This document shows positions 1 to 10,156 of a stretch of DNA of 10,156 nucleotides, in pieces; the stretch's first letter is position 1; each line of letters starts with the position of its first letter. Origin of the DNA: a virus (taxonomy: Duplodnaviria > Heunggongvirae > Uroviricota > Caudoviricetes); the IMG/VR virus record IMGVR_UViG_2565956614_000006. One strand, given 5' to 3'. The position numbers and the translations under genes were made by a program. The notes under the pieces are model-generated. The model saw nothing but the letters and a program-made list of their open reading frames with translations, was not told the DNA's origin and did no database searches.

Positions 1-672
<672 letters not shown>

Positions 673-923
673 GGTAATATTAAATCGGAACATTTACATC
701 GCGGAATGTAAAATTTAAATAAAAAGGACTCTTCCATGAGCCAAAATTCCTGAAATCTTAAGGGTAAGATAAAAGGTCTTAATCAGAATGACACGTTATT
801 ATTAATAAATAAAGCTATTCTTTCATTGCTGTGTTTTTCTTTACAAAAGTAATCCTTGCTATGGGTGGTTAATCATGCGTTAATGGTGTTCTGGTTTGTT
901 ACAAATTTATCTGAAGCAGTCAT

Positions 924-932
924 TGTTATAAT
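924..932 (+). promoter_or_regulatory. Candidate extended -10 promoter element (TGtTATAAT) for the cold-shock gene
   Basis: Sequence tgttataat at 924-932 matches TGnTATAAT; lies about 100 nt upstream of the csp start inside a long AT-rich leader, as expected for cspA-family genes. No convincing -35 found. Confidence 0.25.
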
Positions 933-1035
933 TTTATTATTTGTACCTCTTGAGATTTCCTTGTTGGTTTTTCTCTCTGATATTTTTTTTCGGACCATTC
1001 TGCCCAAGGGCTAATTTCTTCAAAAGGTAATAATT

Positions 1036-1248
1036 ATGTCTAACAAAATGACTGGTTTAGTGAAATGGTTTAACCCTGAAAAAGGTTTTGGTTTCATCAC
1101 GCCGAAAGATGGCAGCAAAGATGTGTTTGTCCATTTCTCAGCAATTCAGAGCAACGATTTCAAAACATTAACTGAGAATCAGGAAGTTGAATTTGGTATT
1201 GAGAACGGACCTAAAGGTCCTGCCGCTGTTCATGTAGTGGCGCTTTGA
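1036..1248 (+). CDS. cspI: Cold-shock protein, CspA family (CspI-like)
   Basis: 70-aa [45 protein letters not shown]... with RNP1-like KGFGFI and RNP2-like VFVHF motifs of the cold-shock domain; matches my recollection of E. coli CspI; AGG-containing RBS 8 nt upstream; long AT-rich 5' leader. Confidence 0.88.
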
Positions 1249-1447
1249 GGTAGACAATATTACAAACCATATTCACTTTAGATGCCCGTGTTGTCATGGT
1301 TCCCAGTATAGAACATCATCTTTTGATGTTTCTGACATGAATCCTTTCGGGGCAAAATGTATCTTTTGTAAATCAATGATGATTACATTTGATAATATTT
1401 CACAATACTTAAATGCCAGCCGTCTGTCGTTGGATTTAAAAAAGTGA
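1238..1447 (+). CDS. Small zinc-ribbon-like ORF (CPCC...CIFC) with no canonical start codon; possible non-ATG start or recently decayed gene
   Basis: Frame open from 1238 to TGA 1445-1447; translation ...[57 protein letters not shown] has two Cys pairs spaced as in a zinc ribbon. Only in-frame ATG is at 1337, which would split the motif. A strong intrinsic terminator follows 6 nt after the stop. Confidence 0.35.
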
Positions 1448-1452
1448 AAATG

Positions 1453-1476
1453 AAGGCTCCTTCGGGAGCTTTTTTG
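1453..1476 (+). terminator. Rho-independent terminator (GC stem, UUCG tetraloop, T-run)
   Basis: aaggctcc-ttcg-ggagcttt then a run of T's: stem of up to 8 bp, TTCG loop, six T's. Sits just downstream of the csp gene and the zinc-ribbon ORF. Confidence 0.65.
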
Positions 1477-1519
1477 CTTGGTATCTATTCGATGGATACT
1501 CACATACTACGGTAACATC

Positions 1520-1750
1520 ATGAAAAAAATCATAGTTTTTTTTAACTCTGAACCAGCAGTGGTAGTGCCAGCGATGACTGGAGTTAACACCATCATGCGT
1601 GAATATCCAAATGGCGAAAAAACACACCTTACTGTAATGGCCGCAGGGTTTCCATCTCTGACCGGAGATCATAAAGTCATTTATGTAGCCGCGGATCGAC
1701 ATGTTACTTCAGAAGAAATTCTGGAAGCAGCAATAAGGCTCTGGAGTTGA
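1520..1750 (+). CDS. Hypothetical small protein (76 aa from ATG 1520; possible YnfN-like prophage protein)
   Basis: Open frame 1478-1750; plausible starts at 1520 (MKKIIVFF...), 1574 or 1595 (MREYPNGEKTHL..., 51 aa). No strong RBS at any of them. Position between the csp gene and the gns gene parallels the Qin prophage cspI-ynfN-gnsB arrangement (recalled). Confidence 0.45.
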   Translation: MKKIIVFFNSEPAVVVPAMTGVNTIMREYPNGEKTHLTVMAAGFPSLTGDHKVIYVAADRHVTSEEILEAAIRLWS

Positions 1751-1921
1751 TTTGATGCTATTGTATTGATAATTCAGGAAAATTCTCTTTGTCTGTTTGT
1801 GTAAAATTTAGACTATCGTATGTTGATTATTGCGATGTTTCATCTTATCTTTTACACGTTTGCACCATATAATCGACTTACTGTGTAACTGGAAAGTCAT
1901 AACAGACTAAAAGAGGAAATG

Positions 1922-2095
1922 ATGAATATTGAAAACTTAAAAACAAAAGCAGAAGCAGATATTTCTGAATATATAACAAAAAAAATTATTGAACTTAAGA
2001 AAAAGACCGGGAAAGAAGTTACCAGTATTCAGTTTACCGCACGGGAAAAAATGACGGGTCTTGAAAGCTATGATGTCAAGATTAATTTAATCTGA
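1922..2095 (+). CDS. gnsB: GnsA/GnsB-family small protein
   Basis: 57-aa ORF MNIENLKTKAEADISEYITKKIIELKKKTGKEVTSIQFTAREKMTGLESYDVKINLI; the FTAREKMTGLESYDVKI block matches my recollection of E. coli GnsA/GnsB; RBS AAGAGGA at 1911-1917. Shorter than the supplied ORF-track cutoff. gnsB rather than gnsA is chosen from synteny only. Confidence 0.8.
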   Translation: MNIENLKTKAEADISEYITKKIIELKKKTGKEVTSIQFTAREKMTGLESYDVKINLI

Positions 2096-2124
2096 TGTAT
2101 TCAATAATAAAATTTATCCATAAA

Positions 2125-2146
2125 CCTCGTTTTTACGGGGTTTTGT
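2125..2146 (+). terminator. Weak candidate intrinsic terminator downstream of the gns gene
   Basis: cctcg-ttttta-cgggg (5-bp stem with one G-U pair) followed by tttt; about 30 nt after the stop. Confidence 0.25.
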
Positions 2147-2209
2147 TATATTTGAATGGTTCCGAATATCTAAATCACAATTGTTGATGGTTTTTATTAA
2201 ACCAATGCA

Positions 2210-2238
2210 GTCCGGCTCAGGAGTGAGAGAAGCCGGAC
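2210..2238 (-). terminator. GC-rich hairpin just 3' of the minus-strand DUF1398 gene; candidate terminator
   Basis: Perfect 8-bp inverted repeat gtccggct / agccggac with a 13-nt loop, 9 nt beyond the stop of the minus-strand gene; flanking sequence only moderately T-rich. Confidence 0.35.
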
Positions 2239-2246
2239 GTTATGGT

Positions 2247-2657
2247 TTAGCGTGGTAAGATCTGTGTAGTTTTCTGGATGCTTTCAGTAAATAGTAATGA
2301 GTTATCAAAGGCATAGTAATATCTTTGGTGTTCCTGGATATTTGTAACCCATCGGAAAACTCCTGCTTTAGCAAGATTTTCCCTGTATTGTTGAAATGTG
2401 ATTTCTTTTGATTTCAACTTATTATAGGAGGTCTCTATAAGATGTTTGTTTCTGGAGAATTTAACATTTACAACCTTTTTGAGTCCTTTTACTAACACTA
2501 TGTTGTCGTTTTCTAACACAATGTGAATATTATCTGTGGCTAAATAGTAAATATAAAGTGAGATATTGTGACGTTTTAGCTCAGAATAAAATAATTCACA
2601 GTTTAAATCTTTACGCACTTGATCGAATATTTCTTTAAAAATGGCAGCCTGAGCCAT
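2247..2657 (-). CDS. ydfO: DUF1398-family prophage protein (YdfO/YbcV-like)
   Basis: 136-aa ORF from the second ATG ([30 protein letters not shown]...), which has a GGAAGG RBS 7 nt upstream; the track ORF begins 5 codons earlier (2672) without an RBS. Resembles my recollection of E. coli YbcV/YdfO; ydfO chosen from Qin-like synteny; transcribed opposite to neighbours. Confidence 0.75.
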
Positions 2658-2957
2658 TGGTAAACCTTCCATGTGATACGATGGCGCGTAGTTTGCATTA
2701 TCGTGTTTATTGTTTCAATCTGGTCTGACCTCTTTGTGTTTTGTTGATGATTTATGTCAAATATTAAGCCTGTTTTTAATGAATAGTGTTGATTGCGTAA
2801 CAAAATTGAGCCTTGCTGGCATCCAGGAGGGATATGCAACCGACAGATGTATGTAAGGTCGATGTACTCAAACTTTCATACTTTTCCTCTTTTATGCAGT
2901 AAGATTTGAAGTAATATTTTAACCGCTAGATGACGAGCAAACGCATGGAGCGACAAA

Positions 2958-3164
2958 ATGAATAAAGAACAATCTGCTGATGAACTCTCGTTGGATCTGA
3001 TTCGTGTAAAAAATATGCTTAATAGCACCATTTCTATGAGTTACCCGGATGTTGTAATTGCATGTATAGAACATCAGGTGTCTCTGGAAGCATTCAGGGC
3101 AATTGAGGCAGCGTTGGTGAAGCACGATAAGAATTCGAAGGATTATTCCCTGGTGGTTGACTGA
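2958..3164 (+). CDS. Hypothetical small protein (68 aa), occupying the position of ynfO/ylcI-type morons upstream of terminase
   Basis: [71 protein letters not shown] with GGAG RBS 7 nt upstream of the ATG; no recognisable motif. Confidence 0.5.
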
Positions 3165-3184
3165 GCACCATAACTGCTAATCAT

Positions 3185-3352
3185 TCAAACTATTTCACCT
3201 GTGACAGAGTCAATATCGCATTCTGTCACTGTCAGGCTAATACAGAGCTGCAATTCAACTACTGCAATGTCCTCGTAATTAGGTGAATTTACAATATCGT
3301 CCTGTTCGGATGCCGGCTGCATTGCTGAAGATGAGGCATTTATGGTTCGCAT
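3185..3352 (-). CDS. Possible small acidic protein (55 aa), minus strand; speculative
   Basis: ATG at 3352 (minus) preceded by a GAGGGG RBS-like sequence 5 nt upstream; translation MRTINASSSAMQPASEQDDIVNSPNYEDIAVVELQLCISLTVTECDIDSVTGEIV; not in the ORF track (below length cutoff); overlaps a palindromic element. Confidence 0.2.
   Translation of the reverse strand: MRTINASSSAMQPASEQDDIVNSPNYEDIAVVELQLCISLTVTECDIDSVTGEIV
3193..3201. repeat. First copy of a thrice-repeated 9-mer TTTCACCTG
   Basis: Exact 9-mer also at 3635-3643 and 3712-3720; this copy abuts the palindrome gtgacaga...tctgtcac (3201-3229). Confidence 0.6.
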
Positions 3353-3488
3353 ATTTTCCCCTCATGCTCGTCAGTCCTGTGCGTAGGAAGAAACAGGACA
3401 CTCACACTAATTTGTGTGGGCATGCTGTGATGTCCTTCTGAATTATTCCTATGCCATTATGTAAAGCGCTGTATCAGATGCTCGTCAC

Positions 3489-3511
3489 GGCTGTCAGGCT
3501 GTCAGGCTGTC
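3489..3511. repeat. Tandem octamer repeat (GGCTGTCA, nearly 3 copies) immediately upstream of the cos-like site
   Basis: ggctgtca ggctgtca ggctgtc read directly; related CTGTCA(GG) motifs recur at 3223-3236 and 3662-3667. Confidence 0.6.
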
Positions 3512-3536
3512 GGGTCCTCCCGGTGGGGGCCCCTGC

Positions 3537-3557
3537 CACGGGGCGGGAGCGTCGCGG
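3537..3557. other. cos-like site: putative cosN (cohesive-end site) of the prophage
   Basis: acgGGGCGGGAGCGTcgcgg resembles phage lambda cosN acgGGGCGGCGACCTcgcgg (recalled lambda left end GGGCGGCGACCTCGCGGG): identical flanks and first 6 nt of the 12-mer; lies about 180 bp upstream of the small terminase start in a GC-rich block. Confidence 0.5.
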
Positions 3558-3633
3558 AAAAAGGCTAGTTTTTGCATTTCCATGGCGGCGGCAGCATGTT
3601 TGGTAATTTATTGATAATTAAAAGTTATTTCTC

Positions 3634-3720
3634 TTTTCACCTGTACAATATTTTTTTCTCCCTGTCATTAGACCAGTTTGCAATTAATTGAAATATATAA
3701 ATAAACATGATTTTCACCTG
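3634..3720. promoter_or_regulatory. Two direct copies of TTTTCACCTG spaced 77 bp apart between cosN-like site and terminase start; candidate cosB-type terminase or IHF binding region
   Basis: ttttcacctg at 3634-3643 and 3711-3720 in AT-rich DNA; the second copy overlaps the first ATG of the track ORF, arguing for a downstream start of the small terminase. Confidence 0.4.
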
Positions 3721-3736
3721 CCAGATGGAGTTGCTT

Positions 3737-4264
3737 ATGTCAAATGTGAGCGGGATCGGTGATGCTTATTACTGGAGTGTTTTTAAAATCGCTGAGGCCT
3801 TTGGGCTTCACCGGGACACAGTAAAAAAACGGCTCCTCGCGGCCAACACTCCTGTGGCTGCGACTGTCAGGGGGAACCCCGTTTACGCCCTGCAGCATGT
3901 CGGGCCAGCCCTGTTTAGTGTGAAGCATGAGGCAGCAGACTCTGTTCATGATCCATCCCGTATGGAGCCGAAAGAGAGAAAGGACTGGTACCAGTCTGAA
4001 AATGAAAGGATCAAGCTGGAAAAGGAGCAGCGAAAACTCATCCCCGTTGATGAAGTAGTCATCGTCTATTCGTCCATGAGAAAGGCTGTCGTCCAGGTTC
4101 TGGAGACAATTCCGGATGTTCTTGAACGCGATTGCGCCCTGACTCCTCAGGCCGTCGGCGTTGTACAGCAGGCCATTGATGACCTGCGATACACTCTTCA
4201 GGAAAAATCCTACGAGGCTTGTGCTGCTGAATTAATTCCTGATGAGGAAGGAGAGAGTCTCTAG
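3737..4264 (+). CDS. Terminase small subunit (DNA-recognition subunit; not Nu1-like in sequence)
   Basis: Immediately upstream of and coupled to the large terminase; N-terminal HTH-like segment (YYWSVFKIAEAFGLHRDTVKKRL); acidic C-terminus. Start at 3737 preferred (GGAG RBS 6 nt upstream); alternatives 3707 and 3725. Located downstream of the cos-like site. Confidence 0.65.
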   Translation: MSNVSGIGDAYYWSVFKIAEAFGLHRDTVKKRLLAANTPVAATVRGNPVYALQHVGPALFSVKHEAADSVHDPSRMEPKERKDWYQSENERIKLEKEQRKLIPVDEVVIVYSSMRKAVVQVLETIPDVLERDCALTPQAVGVVQQAIDDLRYTLQEKSYEACAAELIPDEEGESL

Positions 4265-4272
4265 GAGGAATA

Positions 4273-6372
4273 ATGGGTTTTTCATCAGCCCGAAATTTGG
4301 GAAGGGACATATCGGCAGGATTTTCCCCACCACGTCGCATGCCGATTTCGGAGGCTGTTAAAAAATTCATGCGTGTTCCCAAGGGGGCTGGTAACTCGGT
4401 GCCATGGGATCCTGAACTGACACCCTACATCATTGAGCCCATGAACTGCCTGGCATCGCGTGAATACGATGCGGTGATTTTTGTTGGTCCTGCGCGAACA
4501 GGGAAGACCATTGGTCTGATCGATGGATGGATTGTCTATACCATCGTTTGCGATCCTTCGGACATGCTCGTTGTGCAGATGACCGAAGATAAGGCCCGCG
4601 AGCATTCTAAAAAGCGCCTCGACAGAACGTTCAGAAGCAGTGCGGCGGTAAAGAAAAGAATGAGTCCACGTCGTAACGACAATAATGTCCATGATAAGAC
4701 GTTCAGGGATGGCTCGTTCCTTAAAATTGGTTGGCCCTCGGTCAACATTATGTCGTCGTCGGATTACCGGTTTGTCGCCTTAACCGATTACGACCGTTTT
4801 CCGGAGAATATCGACAGCGAGGGTGATGGTTTCTCCCTGGCCTCAAAACGTACCACCACATTTATGTCCGCCGGGATGACTCTGGTGGAGAGCTCGCCGG
4901 GACGTGACATCTGCGACAGCAAATGGCGACGTAAGTCGCCTCATGAAGCGCCACCGACGACTGGTATTCTTTCCCTTTACAATCGTGGTGACCGCCGCCG
5001 CTGGTACTGGTCATGTCCGCACTGCGGTGAATATTTTCAGCCAGCCATGGATGCCATGACCGGCTACCGTAATGAACCGGATCCCTTTAAAGCCAGTGAG
5101 GCGGCGTATCTACTTTGCCCGCACTGCAGCGGCATTATCACTGCGGAGAAAAAGCGTGAGCTCAATAGTGCAGGAGTCTGGTTGCGTGAAGGTCAGGTCA
5201 TTGATCGTAACGGCAACGTTTCCGGTGAACCGCGCCGCTCCCGTATCGCCAGTTTCTGGATGGAAGGGCCAGCTGCTGCGTATCAGACCTGGGCGCAACT
5301 GGTTTACAAATTACTGACTGCAGAACAGGAGTATGAAGCGACAGGAAGCGAAGAAACACTCAGGGCGGTTATCAACACCGACTGGGGATTGCCTTATCTT
5401 CCTCGTGCCAGCATGGAGCAACGAAAAAGTGAACTGCTTGAGCAGCGGGCAGAGCCAGTTCCTTCCCGCAGTGTGCCGGATGGCGTTAATTTCCTTGTGG
5501 CGACAGTGGATGTGCAGGCGGGACGTCATCGCCGTTTTGTGGTTCAGGTAACGGGCTATGGCAGTCGTGGCGAACGCTGGATTATTGATCGTTACAACAT
5601 CACGCAGTCATTGCGCAGTGACTGCGACGGGGAGAGCCAGCGAATTGATCCGGCCAGCTATCCGGAAGACTGGGATGTCCTGCTGACGGATGTTTTTCAT
5701 AAAAGCTGGCCGCTGGCCTCCGATCCTTCTCAACAAATGCGACTGATGGCAATGGCGGTGGACTCCGGCGGTGAAGACGGGGTCACTGATAATGCCTATA
5801 AATTCTGGCGTCGTTGCCGTCGTGATGGCCTTGGTAAACGTATTTACCTGTTTAAGGGTGACAGCATCCGGCGCGCAAAACTGATCAGCCGTACATTCCC
5901 TGATAACACCGGACGAACGGGCCGCCGGGCGCAGGCCGCAGGTGATGTGCCGCTCTGGCTTCTTCAGACGGATGCCCTGAAAGACCGGGTGAATAACGCG
6001 TTATGGCGTGACTCGCCAGGTCCAGGCTATGTGCATTTCCCTGACTGGCTGGGGAGCTGGTTTTACGACGAACTGACGTATGAAGAGCGGAGCAGTGACG
6101 GGAAATGGAGTAAGCCGGGTCGCGGTGCCAACGAAGCTTTTGACCTGATGGTGTATGCCGAGGCTCTGGTCATTCTGCATGGATACGAAAAGATCCGCTG
6201 GCCGGATGCACCGGAGTGGGCGAGCCGGGAAACCTGGCTGGAGTGTGTCCAGGACAGTACCGAACCGTCATCCTCACCGGAACCGGTATCCACGCCTGTT
6301 AAAAAACAAAAACGGAAGAAAACAGTAACTGACGATGTTAACCCCTGGCTGACTTCCGGAGGATGGTTATGA
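4273..6372 (+). CDS. Terminase large subunit, lambda GpA family
   Basis: 699-aa ORF with AGGAGG RBS; Walker A-like VGPARTGKT; CPHCGE and CPHC motifs like those I recall in lambda gpA; size and position match the GpA family. Confidence 0.88.
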   Translation: MGFSSARNLGRDISAGFSPPRRMPISEAVKKFMRVPKGAGNSVPWDPELTPYIIEPMNCLASREYDAVIFVGPARTGKTIGLIDGWIVYTIVCDPSDMLVVQMTEDKAREHSKKRLDRTFRSSAAVKKRMSPRRNDNNVHDKTFRDGSFLKIGWPSVNIMSSSDYRFVALTDYDRFPENIDSEGDGFSLASKRTTTFMSAGMTLVESSPGRDICDSKWRRKSPHEAPPTTGILSLYNRGDRRRWYWSCPHCGEYFQPAMDAMTGYRNEPDPFKASEAAYLLCPHCSGIITAEKKRELNSAGVWLREGQVIDRNGNVSGEPRRSRIASFWMEGPAAAYQTWAQLVYKLLTAEQEYEATGSEETLRAVINTDWGLPYLPRASMEQRKSELLEQRAEPVPSRSVPDGVNFLVATVDVQAGRHRRFVVQVTGYGSRGERWIIDRYNITQSLRSDCDGESQRIDPASYPEDWDVLLTDVFHKSWPLASDPSQQMRLMAMAVDSGGEDGVTDNAYKFWRRCRRDGLGKRIYLFKGDSIRRAKLISRTFPDNTGRTGRRAQAAGDVPLWLLQTDALKDRVNNALWRDSPGPGYVHFPDWLGSWFYDELTYEERSSDGKWSKPGRGANEAFDLMVYAEALVILHGYEKIRWPDAPEWASRETWLECVQDSTEPSSSPEPVSTPVKKQKRKKTVTDDVNPWLTSGGWL

Positions 6373-6581
6373 ACCAGAATGATATCGAAGCCATGATTCA
6401 GCGTTATATGGAAGCTGAAATGGCGGTGCTGGACGGAAAATCCGTCACCTTTAATGGTCAGCAGATGACCATGGAAAACTTATCTGAGATCCGGCAGGGA
6501 CGGCAGGAGTGGGAGCGCCGCCTTGCGGCTCTGATTACACGACGACGGGGGCATCCCGGGTACCGGCTGGCGAGGTTCTGA
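6369..6581 (+). CDS. gpW-like head-tail joining / head completion protein
   Basis: 70-aa ORF, ATG overlapping the terminase stop (ATGA), GGAGGA RBS 6 nt upstream; size, position between terminase and portal, and C-terminal ...RRRGHPGYRLARF (compare lambda gpW ...RRRGPAGFYV, recalled) support gpW. Confidence 0.6.
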   Translation: MNQNDIEAMIQRYMEAEMAVLDGKSVTFNGQQMTMENLSEIRQGRQEWERRLAALITRRRGHPGYRLARF

Positions 6582-8089
6582 TGGCAATTCTTGATGATGT
6601 GATTGGCGTTTTTTCACCAGGATGGAAAGCGGCAAGGCTGCGTTCCCGTGCGGTGATCCAGGCTTATGAGGCCGTAAAAACGACGCGGACACACAAAGCC
6701 CGACGGGAGAACCGAACTGCCGACCAGTTAAGCCAGTACGGGGCCGTGTCGTTACGTGAGCAGGCCCGTTACCTTGATAACAACCACGATCTGGTTATTG
6801 GTGTATTTGACAAGCTGGAAGAACGGGTGGTGGGGAAAAACGGGATTATTGTCGAGCCACATCCGGTATTACGCAATGGGGCCATTGCCCGTGACCTGGC
6901 TGCGGAGATTCGCACCCGATGGAGTGAATGGTCTGTCAGCCCGGAAGTCACCGGGCAGTTTACCCGTCCGATGCTGGAACGTCTGATGCTTCGTACCTGG
7001 CTGCGCGATGGTGAGGTGTTTGCCCAGATGGTTTCCGGGCGCATAAACAGCCTGGCACCTTCTGCCGGTGTTCATTTCTGGCTGGAGGCGCTCGAGCCAG
7101 ACTTTATTCCCATGACCAGTGATGAGAGCAACAGGCTGAATCAGGGCGTGTTTGTTGATGACTGGGGGCGTCCCGAAAAATATCTGGTGTATAAAAGCCG
7201 TCCCGTATCCAGACGGCAGATGGAAACCAAAGAAGTTGATGCAGAGCGAATGCTGCATCTTAAATTTGTTCGCCGTCTGCACCAGATGCGCGGGACGTCT
7301 TTATTGTCCGGTGTGCTGATCCGCCTCAGTGCCCTGAAAGAATATGAAGATTCTGAGCTGACTGCAGCAAGGATCGCCGCTGCTCTGGGGATGTACATCC
7401 GGAAAGGCGACGGGCAGAGCTATGAACCGGATGGTAATGGCAGAAAGGAGAATGAACGTGAGCTTACCATTCAGCCGGGCATTATTTACGACGATCTGAA
7501 ACCCGGCGAAGAAATCGGAATGGTGAAGTCGGATCGCCCCAATCCTAACCTTGAAACTTTTCGTAATGGTCAGTTGCGTGCCGTGGCGGCGGGCAGTCGT
7601 CTGAGTTTTTCCAGTACAGCGCGCAACTATAACGGCACTTACAGCGCCCAGCGTCAGGAGCTGGTTGAATCTACTGATGGCTACCTGATCCTGCAGGACT
7701 GGTTTATTGGTGCCGTCACCCGCCCGATGTACCGTGCATGGCTGAAACAGGCTGTGGCATCCGGTGTTATCAGGCTACCCCGCGATCTTGACCGTTCTTC
7801 ACTGTATACCGCGGTGTATTCCGGACCAGTGATGCCGTGGATTGACCCTGTTAAGGAGGCTGAGGCCTGGAAAATCCAGATTCGTGGTGGAGCGGCGACA
7901 GAATCAGACTGGGTACGTGCTGGTGGTCGTAATCCGGATGATGTCAAACGTCGGCGCAAGGCCGAAATTGATGAAAACCGCAAGCTGGATCTGGTATTTG
8001 ATACCGATCCGGCCAGTGATAAAGGAGGCAGTAGTGCCGCAACGAAACGACAGGAGCCGCAGCACACCGACGACCAGTCCGAAGAATAA
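6581..8089 (+). CDS. Portal protein (lambda gpB-like family)
   Basis: 502-aa ORF from the ATG overlapping the gpW stop (TGATG); the track ORF extends 24 codons upstream to 6509 but this start is coupled. Size and position between gpW and the head protease fit a portal. Confidence 0.8.
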   Translation: MAILDDVIGVFSPGWKAARLRSRAVIQAYEAVKTTRTHKARRENRTADQLSQYGAVSLREQARYLDNNHDLVIGVFDKLEERVVGKNGIIVEPHPVLRNGAIARDLAAEIRTRWSEWSVSPEVTGQFTRPMLERLMLRTWLRDGEVFAQMVSGRINSLAPSAGVHFWLEALEPDFIPMTSDESNRLNQGVFVDDWGRPEKYLVYKSRPVSRRQMETKEVDAERMLHLKFVRRLHQMRGTSLLSGVLIRLSALKEYEDSELTAARIAAALGMYIRKGDGQSYEPDGNGRKENERELTIQPGIIYDDLKPGEEIGMVKSDRPNPNLETFRNGQLRAVAAGSRLSFSSTARNYNGTYSAQRQELVESTDGYLILQDWFIGAVTRPMYRAWLKQAVASGVIRLPRDLDRSSLYTAVYSGPVMPWIDPVKEAEAWKIQIRGGAATESDWVRAGGRNPDDVKRRRKAEIDENRKLDLVFDTDPASDKGGSSAATKRQEPQHTDDQSEE

Positions 8090-9803
8090 TTCCTGGTTCA
8101 GGATGCAGGCTGGTCACCAGAGTGACGCGGATATTTATATTTATGACGAGATTGGTTTCTGGGGTGTTACAGCGAAGCAGTTTATCAGTGATCTGAATGC
8201 ACTGGGCGATATCACCCACATTAATCTCCATATTAATTCACCGGGTGGCGATGTCTTTGAAGGCATCGCCATTTTTAATGCGCTGAAAACACATGGTGCG
8301 TCCATTACCGTTTATGTCGACGGTGTGGCGGCGTCAATGGCGTCGGTCATTGCGATGGTAGGAAACCCGGTCATTATGCCGGAAAACACCTTCATGATGA
8401 TTCATAAACCATTTGGCTTTACGGGCGGTGATGCGGAGGACATGCGCACCTATGCCGACCTGCTCGATAAAGTTGAGGCGGTTCTGTTACCCGCTTATGC
8501 ACAGAAAACCGGGAAAACCACCGATGAAATTGCTGCCATGCTGGCGGATGAGACCTGGATGTCCGGTGCCGAATGTCTGGCACATGGATTTGCTGATCAG
8601 GTAACGCCAGCCGTTAAGGCAATGGCATGTATTCAGTCAAAACGTACAGAGGAATTTAAAAAGATGCCGGAATCCATTCGAAACATGATTACTCCGCCAC
8701 GCAACAGTGCTCCACGCGTACAGGATAATGAACCTGAAGCCTCCCGGACGCCAGTGCAGGCAGCAGCACCCGTGGTGGATGAAAACAGCATCCGTGCGCA
8801 GGTACTGGCAGAGCAAAAAGCGCGTGTAAACGGTATTAATGACCTGTTTGCCATGTTTGGCGGGCGTTATCAGACGCTGCAGGCTCAGTGTCTTGCCGAT
8901 CCTGAATGTTCGCTGGAGCAGGCCCGTGAAAAGCTGTTGAACGAGATGGGGCGCGAGTCCACGCCATCCAATAAAAATACCCCGGCTCATATTTATGCCG
9001 GTAACGGTAATTTTGTGGGGGACGGGATCCGCCAGGCGCTGATGGCGCGTGCCGGATTTGAAAAAACCGAACGTGATAATGTTTACAACGGGATGACCCT
9101 GCGTGAATATGCCCGTATGTCACTAACTGAACGGGGTATTGGGGTTTCCGGTTATAACCCGATGCAGATGGTCGGTGCGGCGTTCACACACAGTACGTCT
9201 GACTTCGGTAATATTCTGCTGGATGTTGCGAACAAAGCCATTCTGCAGGGCTGGGAAGATGCCCCTGAAACCTATGAACAGTGGACGCGGAAAGGTCAGT
9301 TGTCTGATTTTAAAATTGCCCATCGTGTGGGTATGGGTGGCTTCAGTGCTCTGCGTCAGGTGCGTGAAGGGGCGGAATATAAATACGTCACCACCGGAGA
9401 TAAACAGGCCACTATTGCACTGGCGACCTATGGCGAGCTGTTCAGTATCACCCGTCAGGCCATTATCAATGATGATCTGAATATGCTGACCGATGTCCCG
9501 ATGAAACTGGGCCGTGCGGCGAAATCCACTATTGCCGATCTGGTTTATGCCATTCTGACGTCTAACCCGAAAATCTCCACAGATAATGTAAGTCTGTTCG
9601 ATAAAGCGAAACATGCAAACGTACTGGAGAGCGCAGCAATGGACGTGGCATCGCTGGATAAAGCCCGCCAGTTGATGCGCGTTCAGAAGGCGCTGGATTT
9701 AACGTGGGGTCACCTCAACAGGCAGGTATATCTGAACTTGTTTTACGTGCAGGTAATGGTAATCCGAAGGGGATTACTGGTGCTTTATGGCAGCGCACAT
9801 TGA
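8034..9803 (+). CDS. ClpP-like prohead protease fused to scaffold/major capsid protein; 3' end disrupted by a deletion junction
   Basis: ClpP (S14) signature blocks [10 protein letters not shown]...[31 protein letters not shown]; C-terminal two-thirds resembles an HK97-fold capsid domain. Preferred start GTG 8034 with AAGGAGG RBS 5 nt upstream (inside portal 3' end); alternative ATG 8103. The frame ends in an implausible tail (...[28 protein letters not shown]) while another frame continues as tail-fibre sequence. Confidence 0.8.
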
Positions 9804-10156
9804 CAGGGTTTACAAATTTTGCCTGGGTTAATACATCTGGTGATACTTACGATATTTACGTTGCAATCGGAAATTATGCGACTGGTGTAAATATTCAATG
9901 GGATTATACCAGTAATGCCAGCGTGACGATTCATACGTCACCAGCATATTCTGCTAATAAGCCGGAAGGGTTAACGGACGGTACAGTTTATTCACTCTAT
10001 ACGCCATCAGAGCAGTTTTATCCGCCTGGCGCACCAATCCCGTGGCCATCAGATACCGTTCCGTCTGGCTATGCCCTGATGCAGGGGCAGGCTTTTGACA
10101 AATCTGCATACCCGAAACTTGCAGCGGCTTATCCGTCAGGCGTGATCCCTGATATG
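9662..10156 (+). pseudogene. Side tail fibre (Stf-like) gene fragment: internal part, no start, continues beyond the window
   Basis: Frame open from 9662 to the window end with no start codon; translation ...[96 protein letters not shown] contains the conserved block I recognise from lambdoid side tail fibre proteins. Out of frame with the capsid gene. Confidence 0.7.

Follow-up and report, generated by a model that had tools for sequence, protein, structure and literature searches.

The Qin prophage of Escherichia coli integrates at ydfJ, and across 189 strains its length lies between 11 and 97 kb (PMC6379469). Its described version in K-12, with the late-region deletion that joins nohA to stfQ (b1548/b1547), occupies the same locus as the prophage analysed here, between truncated ydfJ and rspB. 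The two prophages have the moron and lysis genes cspI, gnsB, rzpQ, rrrQ, essQ, cspB and cspF in common and, at the right end, tfaQ, pinQ and ydfK. Nucleotide identity to K-12 is 90-92% across ynfN-gnsB-ydfO and 94-96% across tfaQ, pinQ and the 3' end of the side-tail-fibre gene (stf). Like the allele described below, K-12 Qin has lost its head and tail genes and kept some 320-340 C-terminal codons of stf. The DNA under study, a single stretch of 10,156 nucleotides referred to here as the window, very probably owes its present form to a single deletion of 15,095 bp in the Qin late operon at the ydfJ locus, by which the capsid gene was joined out of frame to stf.

The window is E. coli DNA from Qin. 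All 10,156 bases align to the chromosome of the pig isolate KV7 (NZ_LT795502.1, 2373627-2383782) with two differences, 1743 G/T and 9680 C/T, the latter synonymous (CGC/CGT) and 8 bp from the junction; the draft contig KI521847.1 (GCA_000485635.1) matches it at 100% identity. The right end of the window, 10156, is the end of that contig (L004 12054), within the stf 3' region, and since this region is multi-copy in E. coli (median two, maximum nine places per genome) the contig probably broke at a repeat. Window coordinates equal those of the KV7 locus sequence (L001) minus 4701, and the KV7 RefSeq annotation was transferred on that basis. The KV7 copy lies at the Qin site (5' end of ydfJ, rspB opposite), between rspB/integrase and truncated ydfJ as in K-12, and RefSeq annotates in it the Qin gene set rzpQ, rrrQ, cspI, ynfN, gnsB, tfaQ, pinQ, dicB and relBE. 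Its gene order runs from rspB through integrase, xis, dicB, relBE, hokD, ydfU, ydfT, cspF, cspB, essD, rrrQ and rzpQ to cspI, gnsB, a DUF1441 small-terminase-like gene, large terminase, portal and the truncated capsid fusion, followed by a 5'-truncated phage tail gene, tfaQ, pinQ, ydfK, ynfT and truncated ydfJ. Positions 1-9688 of the window correspond to the Qin lysis-terminase-portal-capsid region, which is present at 99.5-100% identity in hundreds of E. coli genomes. A moron block of small host-adaptive genes (1036-2095; cspI, ymcF/ynfQ, ynfR, ynfN, gnsB) separates the lysis cassette from the packaging genes, and a DUF1398 (ydfO-like) gene occupies 2247-2672 on the opposite strand. The packaging genes of the late operon 5' of the capsid gene (3707..8089) are all intact:

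3707-4264, + strand: DUF1441 small-terminase-like gene (ORF, KV7 RefSeq, Pfam tags in draft contigs)
4273-6372, + strand: large terminase gene (ORF, KV7 RefSeq, Pfam tags in draft contigs)
6369-6581, + strand: small ORF (ORF list, KV7 RefSeq)
6581-8089, + strand: portal gene (ORF, KV7 RefSeq, Pfam tags in draft contigs)

In two genomes, GPEC1446 and ST866, the Qin copy at ydfJ has its structural module complete and its stf at the full 986 codons, and the sequence of the parent was inferred from these intact relatives. Nucleotide searches of 5,426 complete E. coli genomes place the last capsid base at 9688 and the first stf base at 9689, and the region around the junction resolves into the following features:

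8034..9688, + strand: retained 5' part of the ClpP-like prohead protease/major capsid fusion gene (99.5-100% identity to intact genes in the closest genomes)
9659..9688, + strand: stop codon TAA of the stf frame (9659-9661) and nine fortuitously open codons of capsid DNA (SPPVDARSE, 9662-9688), from translation
9688..9689, no strand: deletion junction, a single bond, ...GCGTTCAGAA/GGCGCTGGATT..., from base-by-base comparison with both parental sites in ST866 and GPEC1446
9689..9803, + strand: read-through of the capsid ORF into stf DNA, out of frame, giving 37 unrelated residues and ending at TGA 9801-9803, from translation
9689..10156, + strand: stf (stfQ) remnant, codons 648-803 of 986, matching internal parts of intact stf genes at 100% identity

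Around the breakpoint the sequence is ...GTTCAGAA/AGAGGGGG in the capsid parent, ...GATTGGT/GGCGCTGG in the stf parent and ...GTTCAGAA/GGCGCTGG in the window. The parental flanking bases differ on both sides (A against T on the left, A against G on the right), leaving 0 bp of microhomology, and base-by-base comparison with ST866 and GPEC1446 found no filler bases between capsid and stf sequence, so that the breakpoint is unambiguous. Window position 9688 corresponds to position 14920 of the ST866 locus (L002) and 28687 of the GPEC1446 locus (L007), and 9689 to 30016 and 43783, respectively; the parental sites are thus separated by 15,095 bp in both genomes, between which the deleted-side sequence is identical. 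A 6-bp identity nearby, GTTGAT, precedes one breakpoint by 12 bp and the other by 6 bp and was set aside as off-junction and short enough to be due to chance. The first-pass annotation, made from the letters of the window, had proposed a deletion that joins the protease-capsid gene to the inside of stf and had placed it within an interval of about 140 bp; the intact same-locus relatives bear out the fusion, carrying the 15,095 bp at this point, and alignment with their capsid and stf genes narrows the interval to the one bond between 9688 and 9689.

On the left of this bond the capsid gene keeps codons 1-551 and two bases of codon 552, of 675 in PGAP numbering, and loses its last 123 codons. 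The protease part is complete (CLP_protease PF00574, E = 3.4e-36, residues 23-168), but the truncated product matches the capsid domain Phage_capsid_4 (PF25209), a profile of 262 positions, only from 7 to 150, where the intact GPEC1446 protein matches 7-261, and on its coding content the protease-capsid gene is a truncated pseudogene. Its frame runs as an ORF from 7842 to 9803 in the mechanical ORF list, and annotators differ over the start, PGAP choosing GTG 8034 (56 nt of overlap with the portal gene) and another caller ATG 8103 (13 nt past the portal stop); from the latter the fused ORF measures 566 amino acids. The codon split by the junction, AA/G, by chance still encodes K. The nonsense-looking tail that had been noted on the capsid frame up to 9803 is confirmed as such, as it resembles no capsid sequence and ends at the TGA already listed. 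Capsid codons start at positions divisible by 3 and stf codons at remainder 2, and because the two frames differ there is no chimeric capsid-fibre protein.

On the right, stf is entered at the first base of codon 648 of 986 (phase 0 at GPEC1446 L007 43783), and the remnant, 339 codons in all, extends beyond the window end, with tfaQ directly 3' of it in KV7 and in the draft contig L005. The genes that it matches are annotated as 'prophage tail fiber N-terminal domain-containing protein'. By Pfam the remnant retains the Collar domain (PF07484, remnant residues 114-156), and the tail-attachment domain phage_tail_N (PF08400) and the Phage_fiber_2 repeats (PF03406), which lie within residues 1-647 of the intact protein, are lost. 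In intact Stf, three tandem repeats of about 40 residues (KGIVQLSSATNSTSE..AATPKAVKAA.D.ANGKYTAQDATT, PF03406 x3) stand just upstream of the breakpoint (GPEC1446 L007 43357-43782 region, residues ~506-640), and all three are gone from the deletion allele. A terminator scan of 9300-10156 gave one terminator-like hairpin with a weak T run, at 9757-9779 within the remnant and shortly ahead of the stop of the fused ORF, which is chance level (one found, 0.8 expected). The remnant has no native start, and gene callers pick GTG 9704 or TTG 9800. A second frame had earlier been described as opening at 9662 and reading tail fibre to the window end. The frame itself stands, but 9662-9688 is capsid DNA and stf sequence begins only at 9689; the frame seemed to open at 9662 because the stop at 9659-9661 is followed by the nine codons that happen to be open.

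The order of the locus is common to KV7, ST866 and GPEC1446, from gnsB, terminase, portal and capsid to stf, tfaQ, pinQ, ydfK, ynfT and truncated ydfJ, and the protein accessions of tfaQ, pinQ and ydfK are identical across the three. On both sides of the junction the Qin copies of GPEC1446 and ST866 are 99.7-100% identical in nucleotide sequence to the window, with the same gene order and flanks, and differ from it in retaining the 15,095 bp and a complete capsid gene. Compared with them, 14 whole genes are missing, namely DUF2190, head-tail joining, tail terminator and tube, G, T, tape measure, M, L, K, I, J and lom, together with the capsid 3' end and the 5' two thirds of stf (its first 647 codons). 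The earlier statement that everything between capsid and tail fibre is absent is therefore accurate, and from its gene content the locus would no longer be able to make heads or tails. GPEC1446 differs from the window by only two mismatches and one gap over 9,688 bp, and such near identity to an intact relative indicates that the deletion is recent.

The junction occurs in one of the 5,426 complete E. coli genomes, that of KV7; no other complete genome has the contiguous sequence, which intact prophages would share were this an ordinary arrangement of the late operon. The exact fused ORF and junction are also present in three draft assemblies (GCA_000485635.1, GCA_054662995.1 and GCA_001263735.1), making at least four assemblies with KV7, and these show 0-2 SNPs against the window over the shared part. 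The C/T difference at 9680 indicates that the junction allele has been sequenced in distinct isolates. The unjoined sequences are common, stf being contiguous across the right breakpoint in 1,370 genomes and capsid DNA covering most of the stretch immediately left of the breakpoint in about 1,820. We considered whether the stf breakpoint is a recurrent mosaic boundary and rejected this, given the contiguous genomes and the scatter of partial matches, which start at 121, 124, 199, 516 and 531 in a spread sample of 40 records. A 40-nt junction sequence, with C or T allowed at 9680, gave no match in a metagenome scan, which thus offers no evidence of the allele outside isolate genomes. Presence in at least four assemblies, yet in only one of the 5,426 complete genomes, indicates that the junction is real, inherited and lineage-specific. 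By sequence comparison it is fixed in a small clonal lineage, to which KV7 and at least three drafts belong.

The deletion fell on a prophage that bears other lesions. In KV7 Qin an IS5-like (ISKpn26-family) element splits the excisionase gene xisR and a truncated ISEsa1 transposase lies in the early region (L008 9967-12732 and 19836-20885), the ISEsa1 remnant adjoining replication-region genes and an IS1 lying nearby. GPEC1446, whose structural genes are intact, has the same ISEsa1 remnant, IS66 insertions (ISEc8 in flxA) and several frameshifted early genes. Probably, then, Qin in this lineage was already defective and immobile before the deletion because of its IS lesions, and induction may no longer be possible even in the version whose structural module is intact. 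The first-pass view that the deletion marks the prophage as cryptic needs qualifying in this respect: it is a further step of decay but not by itself the cause, as there are IS lesions too and the ISEsa1 remnant is found also in intact GPEC1446. In the RefSeq annotation of KV7 both products are already flagged as pseudogenes, the capsid fusion as 'incomplete, missing C-terminus' and the phage tail protein as 'incomplete, missing N-terminus'. The allele is ordinary prophage decay, a lineage-specific case of a well-known process.

As to how the deletion arose, the comparisons show two sites 15 kb apart joined directly, with no shared bases, no filler and in different frames. The result is a capsid ORF that stops after 37 nonsense residues and a C-terminal third of stf, with tfaQ and pinQ behind it, that has neither a start nor a promoter of its own. 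Judged from this one product, the joining was probably a short-homology-independent illegitimate recombination, through two breaks or a topoisomerase-type exchange, for which gyrase, with its highly degenerate cleavage consensus, would be a candidate. As a further stage in the decay of an IS-crippled prophage, the event was probably neutral or mildly beneficial. Short-homology-independent illegitimate recombination has been described in E. coli phage work (Shimizu et al. 1997, J Mol Biol 266:297, as cited in PMC11111574) and, as presented through that citation, resembles the window junction in that the parental sites lack homology and nothing is inserted between them; it was defined experimentally through the formation of lambda transducing phage, whereas the present event is known from its product alone. 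We regard it as the best-fitting known class, roughly an even call among the homology-independent routes. Native E. coli end-joining reportedly relies on microhomologies of 1-9 nt (bioRxiv 10.1101/605246) and fits less well because the junction has none. Microhomology-mediated deletion, for which at least one shared base was sought and 0 bp found, was rejected, as was IS-mediated adjacent deletion, there being no IS at the junction, where capsid and stf directly abut.

The alternative that fares best is an origin in several steps, by successive deletions, for example an IS-mediated adjacent deletion and then a second that removed the IS, with the bond at 9688/9689 recording the last event only. 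Nested deletions would leave the same final scar, and such a history would be in keeping with the IS activity in Qin of this lineage (the IS5-like element in xisR, the ISEsa1 remnant and the nearby IS1) and with the stacked scars of other cryptic prophages, such as that at the ompW locus of EC0026B, in which four partial genes stand in a row. Nevertheless, no IS or foreign base is left at the junction, no intermediate allele was found among the 5,426 complete genomes, and the closest relative, at about three differences in 9.7 kb, carries the whole region, so that a succession of events would have had little time. We therefore consider several steps improbable and retain the single 15,095-bp deletion.

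Selection is a less likely explanation still. For this locus it would mean that the arrangement is kept because the truncated protease-capsid, or the orphan Stf C-terminus with TfaQ, serves the host, through phage interference or as a receptor-binding reservoir. K-12 Qin, DLP12 of FDN-9 and the ompW-locus prophage underwent separate deletions and each still has an stf 3' fragment with tfa, and in the window the TGA of the fused ORF (9801-9803) overlaps TTG 9800 of the stf frame, GTG 9704 also being called as a start. But geometry is sufficient: with the 3 kb of stf lying at the right-hand end of the element, a deletion that does not extend beyond the prophage will often terminate within this gene, and no selection need be invoked. 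Moreover, a promoter scan of 9300-10156 found no promoter-like site (1.5 expected), the capsid fold is cut in mid-domain and the allele is rare, and for this arrangement we hold selection to be very unlikely. Taken across decayed lambdoid prophages generally, the repeated survival of an orphan Stf C-terminus with Tfa (and Pin) might be read as the mark of selection, the remnant being an expressed cassette kept by the host, or a donor to infecting phages that alters their host range, or, in the case of the capsid remnant, a poison of head assembly in superinfecting phages; this is a speculation to which we give only slightly more credence. Were it true, expression of the stf remnant here would possibly be coupled to the truncated capsid ORF, whose stop overlaps the TTG.

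Site-specific deletion is less probable again. Invertases of the Gin/Pin/Cin family normally act within tail-fibre genes, and pinQ lies only about 1.7 kb downstream, so that PinQ might in principle have recombined a pseudo-crossover site in the capsid gene with a site in stf, deleting the interval. We take AAACCNNGGTTT to be the conserved crossover core of gix/hix sites, and a test with this consensus is approximate. This core is absent near either breakpoint in the intact parent, where one match with a single mismatch (L007 21121) compares with 1.8 expected, and the two breakpoint sequences share no similarity, which makes PinQ a very improbable agent. An assembly or sequencing artefact, a false join by collapse between two prophage regions as the multi-copy stf 3' region and the ending of the window-equal draft contig within it might suggest, is effectively refuted, as four genomes, each assembled on its own, one of them a complete chromosome, share the junction and differ by 1-2 SNPs, with the SNP at 9680 only 8 bp away and with contig L005 continuing, like KV7, into tfaQ and pinQ. 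The single deletion in the Qin late operon is thus the reading that we carry forward.

The significance of the allele is limited. A base-exact Qin deletion allele marks a small E. coli lineage and could serve as a typing marker, and the locus adds one more clean, homology-free junction to the catalogue of natural E. coli illegitimate-recombination products. Beyond annotation it has little importance, the RefSeq pseudogene flags and the variation in Qin size (PMC6379469) being already known.

Comparison with other decayed prophages places the allele more precisely. DLP12 in FDN-9 and the ompW/yciE-locus prophage in EC0026B resemble the window in having packaging genes directly next to incomplete tail or tail-fibre genes and in keeping tfa with a 3' fragment of stf, but they lie at other loci, have other breakpoints and carry several stacked scars. 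In EC0026B (L009 5421-8215) and in FDN-9 DLP12 at appY (L010 6787-7528) the stf matches start at query 121 and 124, about 180 bp upstream of the window breakpoint, and these near-equal starts suggest that one remnant was passed on by recombination, or that the two have a boundary in common.

The comparison with K-12 Qin, which the first-pass annotation had described as similar but not the same, holds in both respects, as the prophage is the same and the deletion independent. The window does not carry the K-12-type nohA-stfQ deletion allele. The K-12 deletion has its left breakpoint at the end of nohA, a small terminase gene of the Nu1 type, whereas here it is inside the capsid gene; K-12 Qin lacks large terminase, portal and capsid, whereas here large terminase and portal are intact and most of capsid is kept. 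Residues 1-79 of K-12 StfQ are of another allele, and the protein aligns to intact Stf only from residue 750, against a remnant starting at 648 in the window. K-12 has nohA and ynfO (L003 5799-6990) where KV7, ST866 and GPEC1446 (window 3164-4264) carry the non-homologous DUF1441 gene; a BLASTP comparison of nohA with that gene gave E = 6.4, which is no homology, and nucleotide comparison with the ST866-type Qin gave no match for the K-12 DNA between a point beyond ydfO and the interior of stfQ. A K-12 deletion nested in, or derived from, that of the window was accordingly rejected, and the differences in breakpoints, stf alleles and terminase module indicate that the two arose independently. 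By these alignments the late regions of 'Qin' across strains are different mosaics, over and above carrying different deletions, and K-12 Qin is just one among several independently decayed versions.
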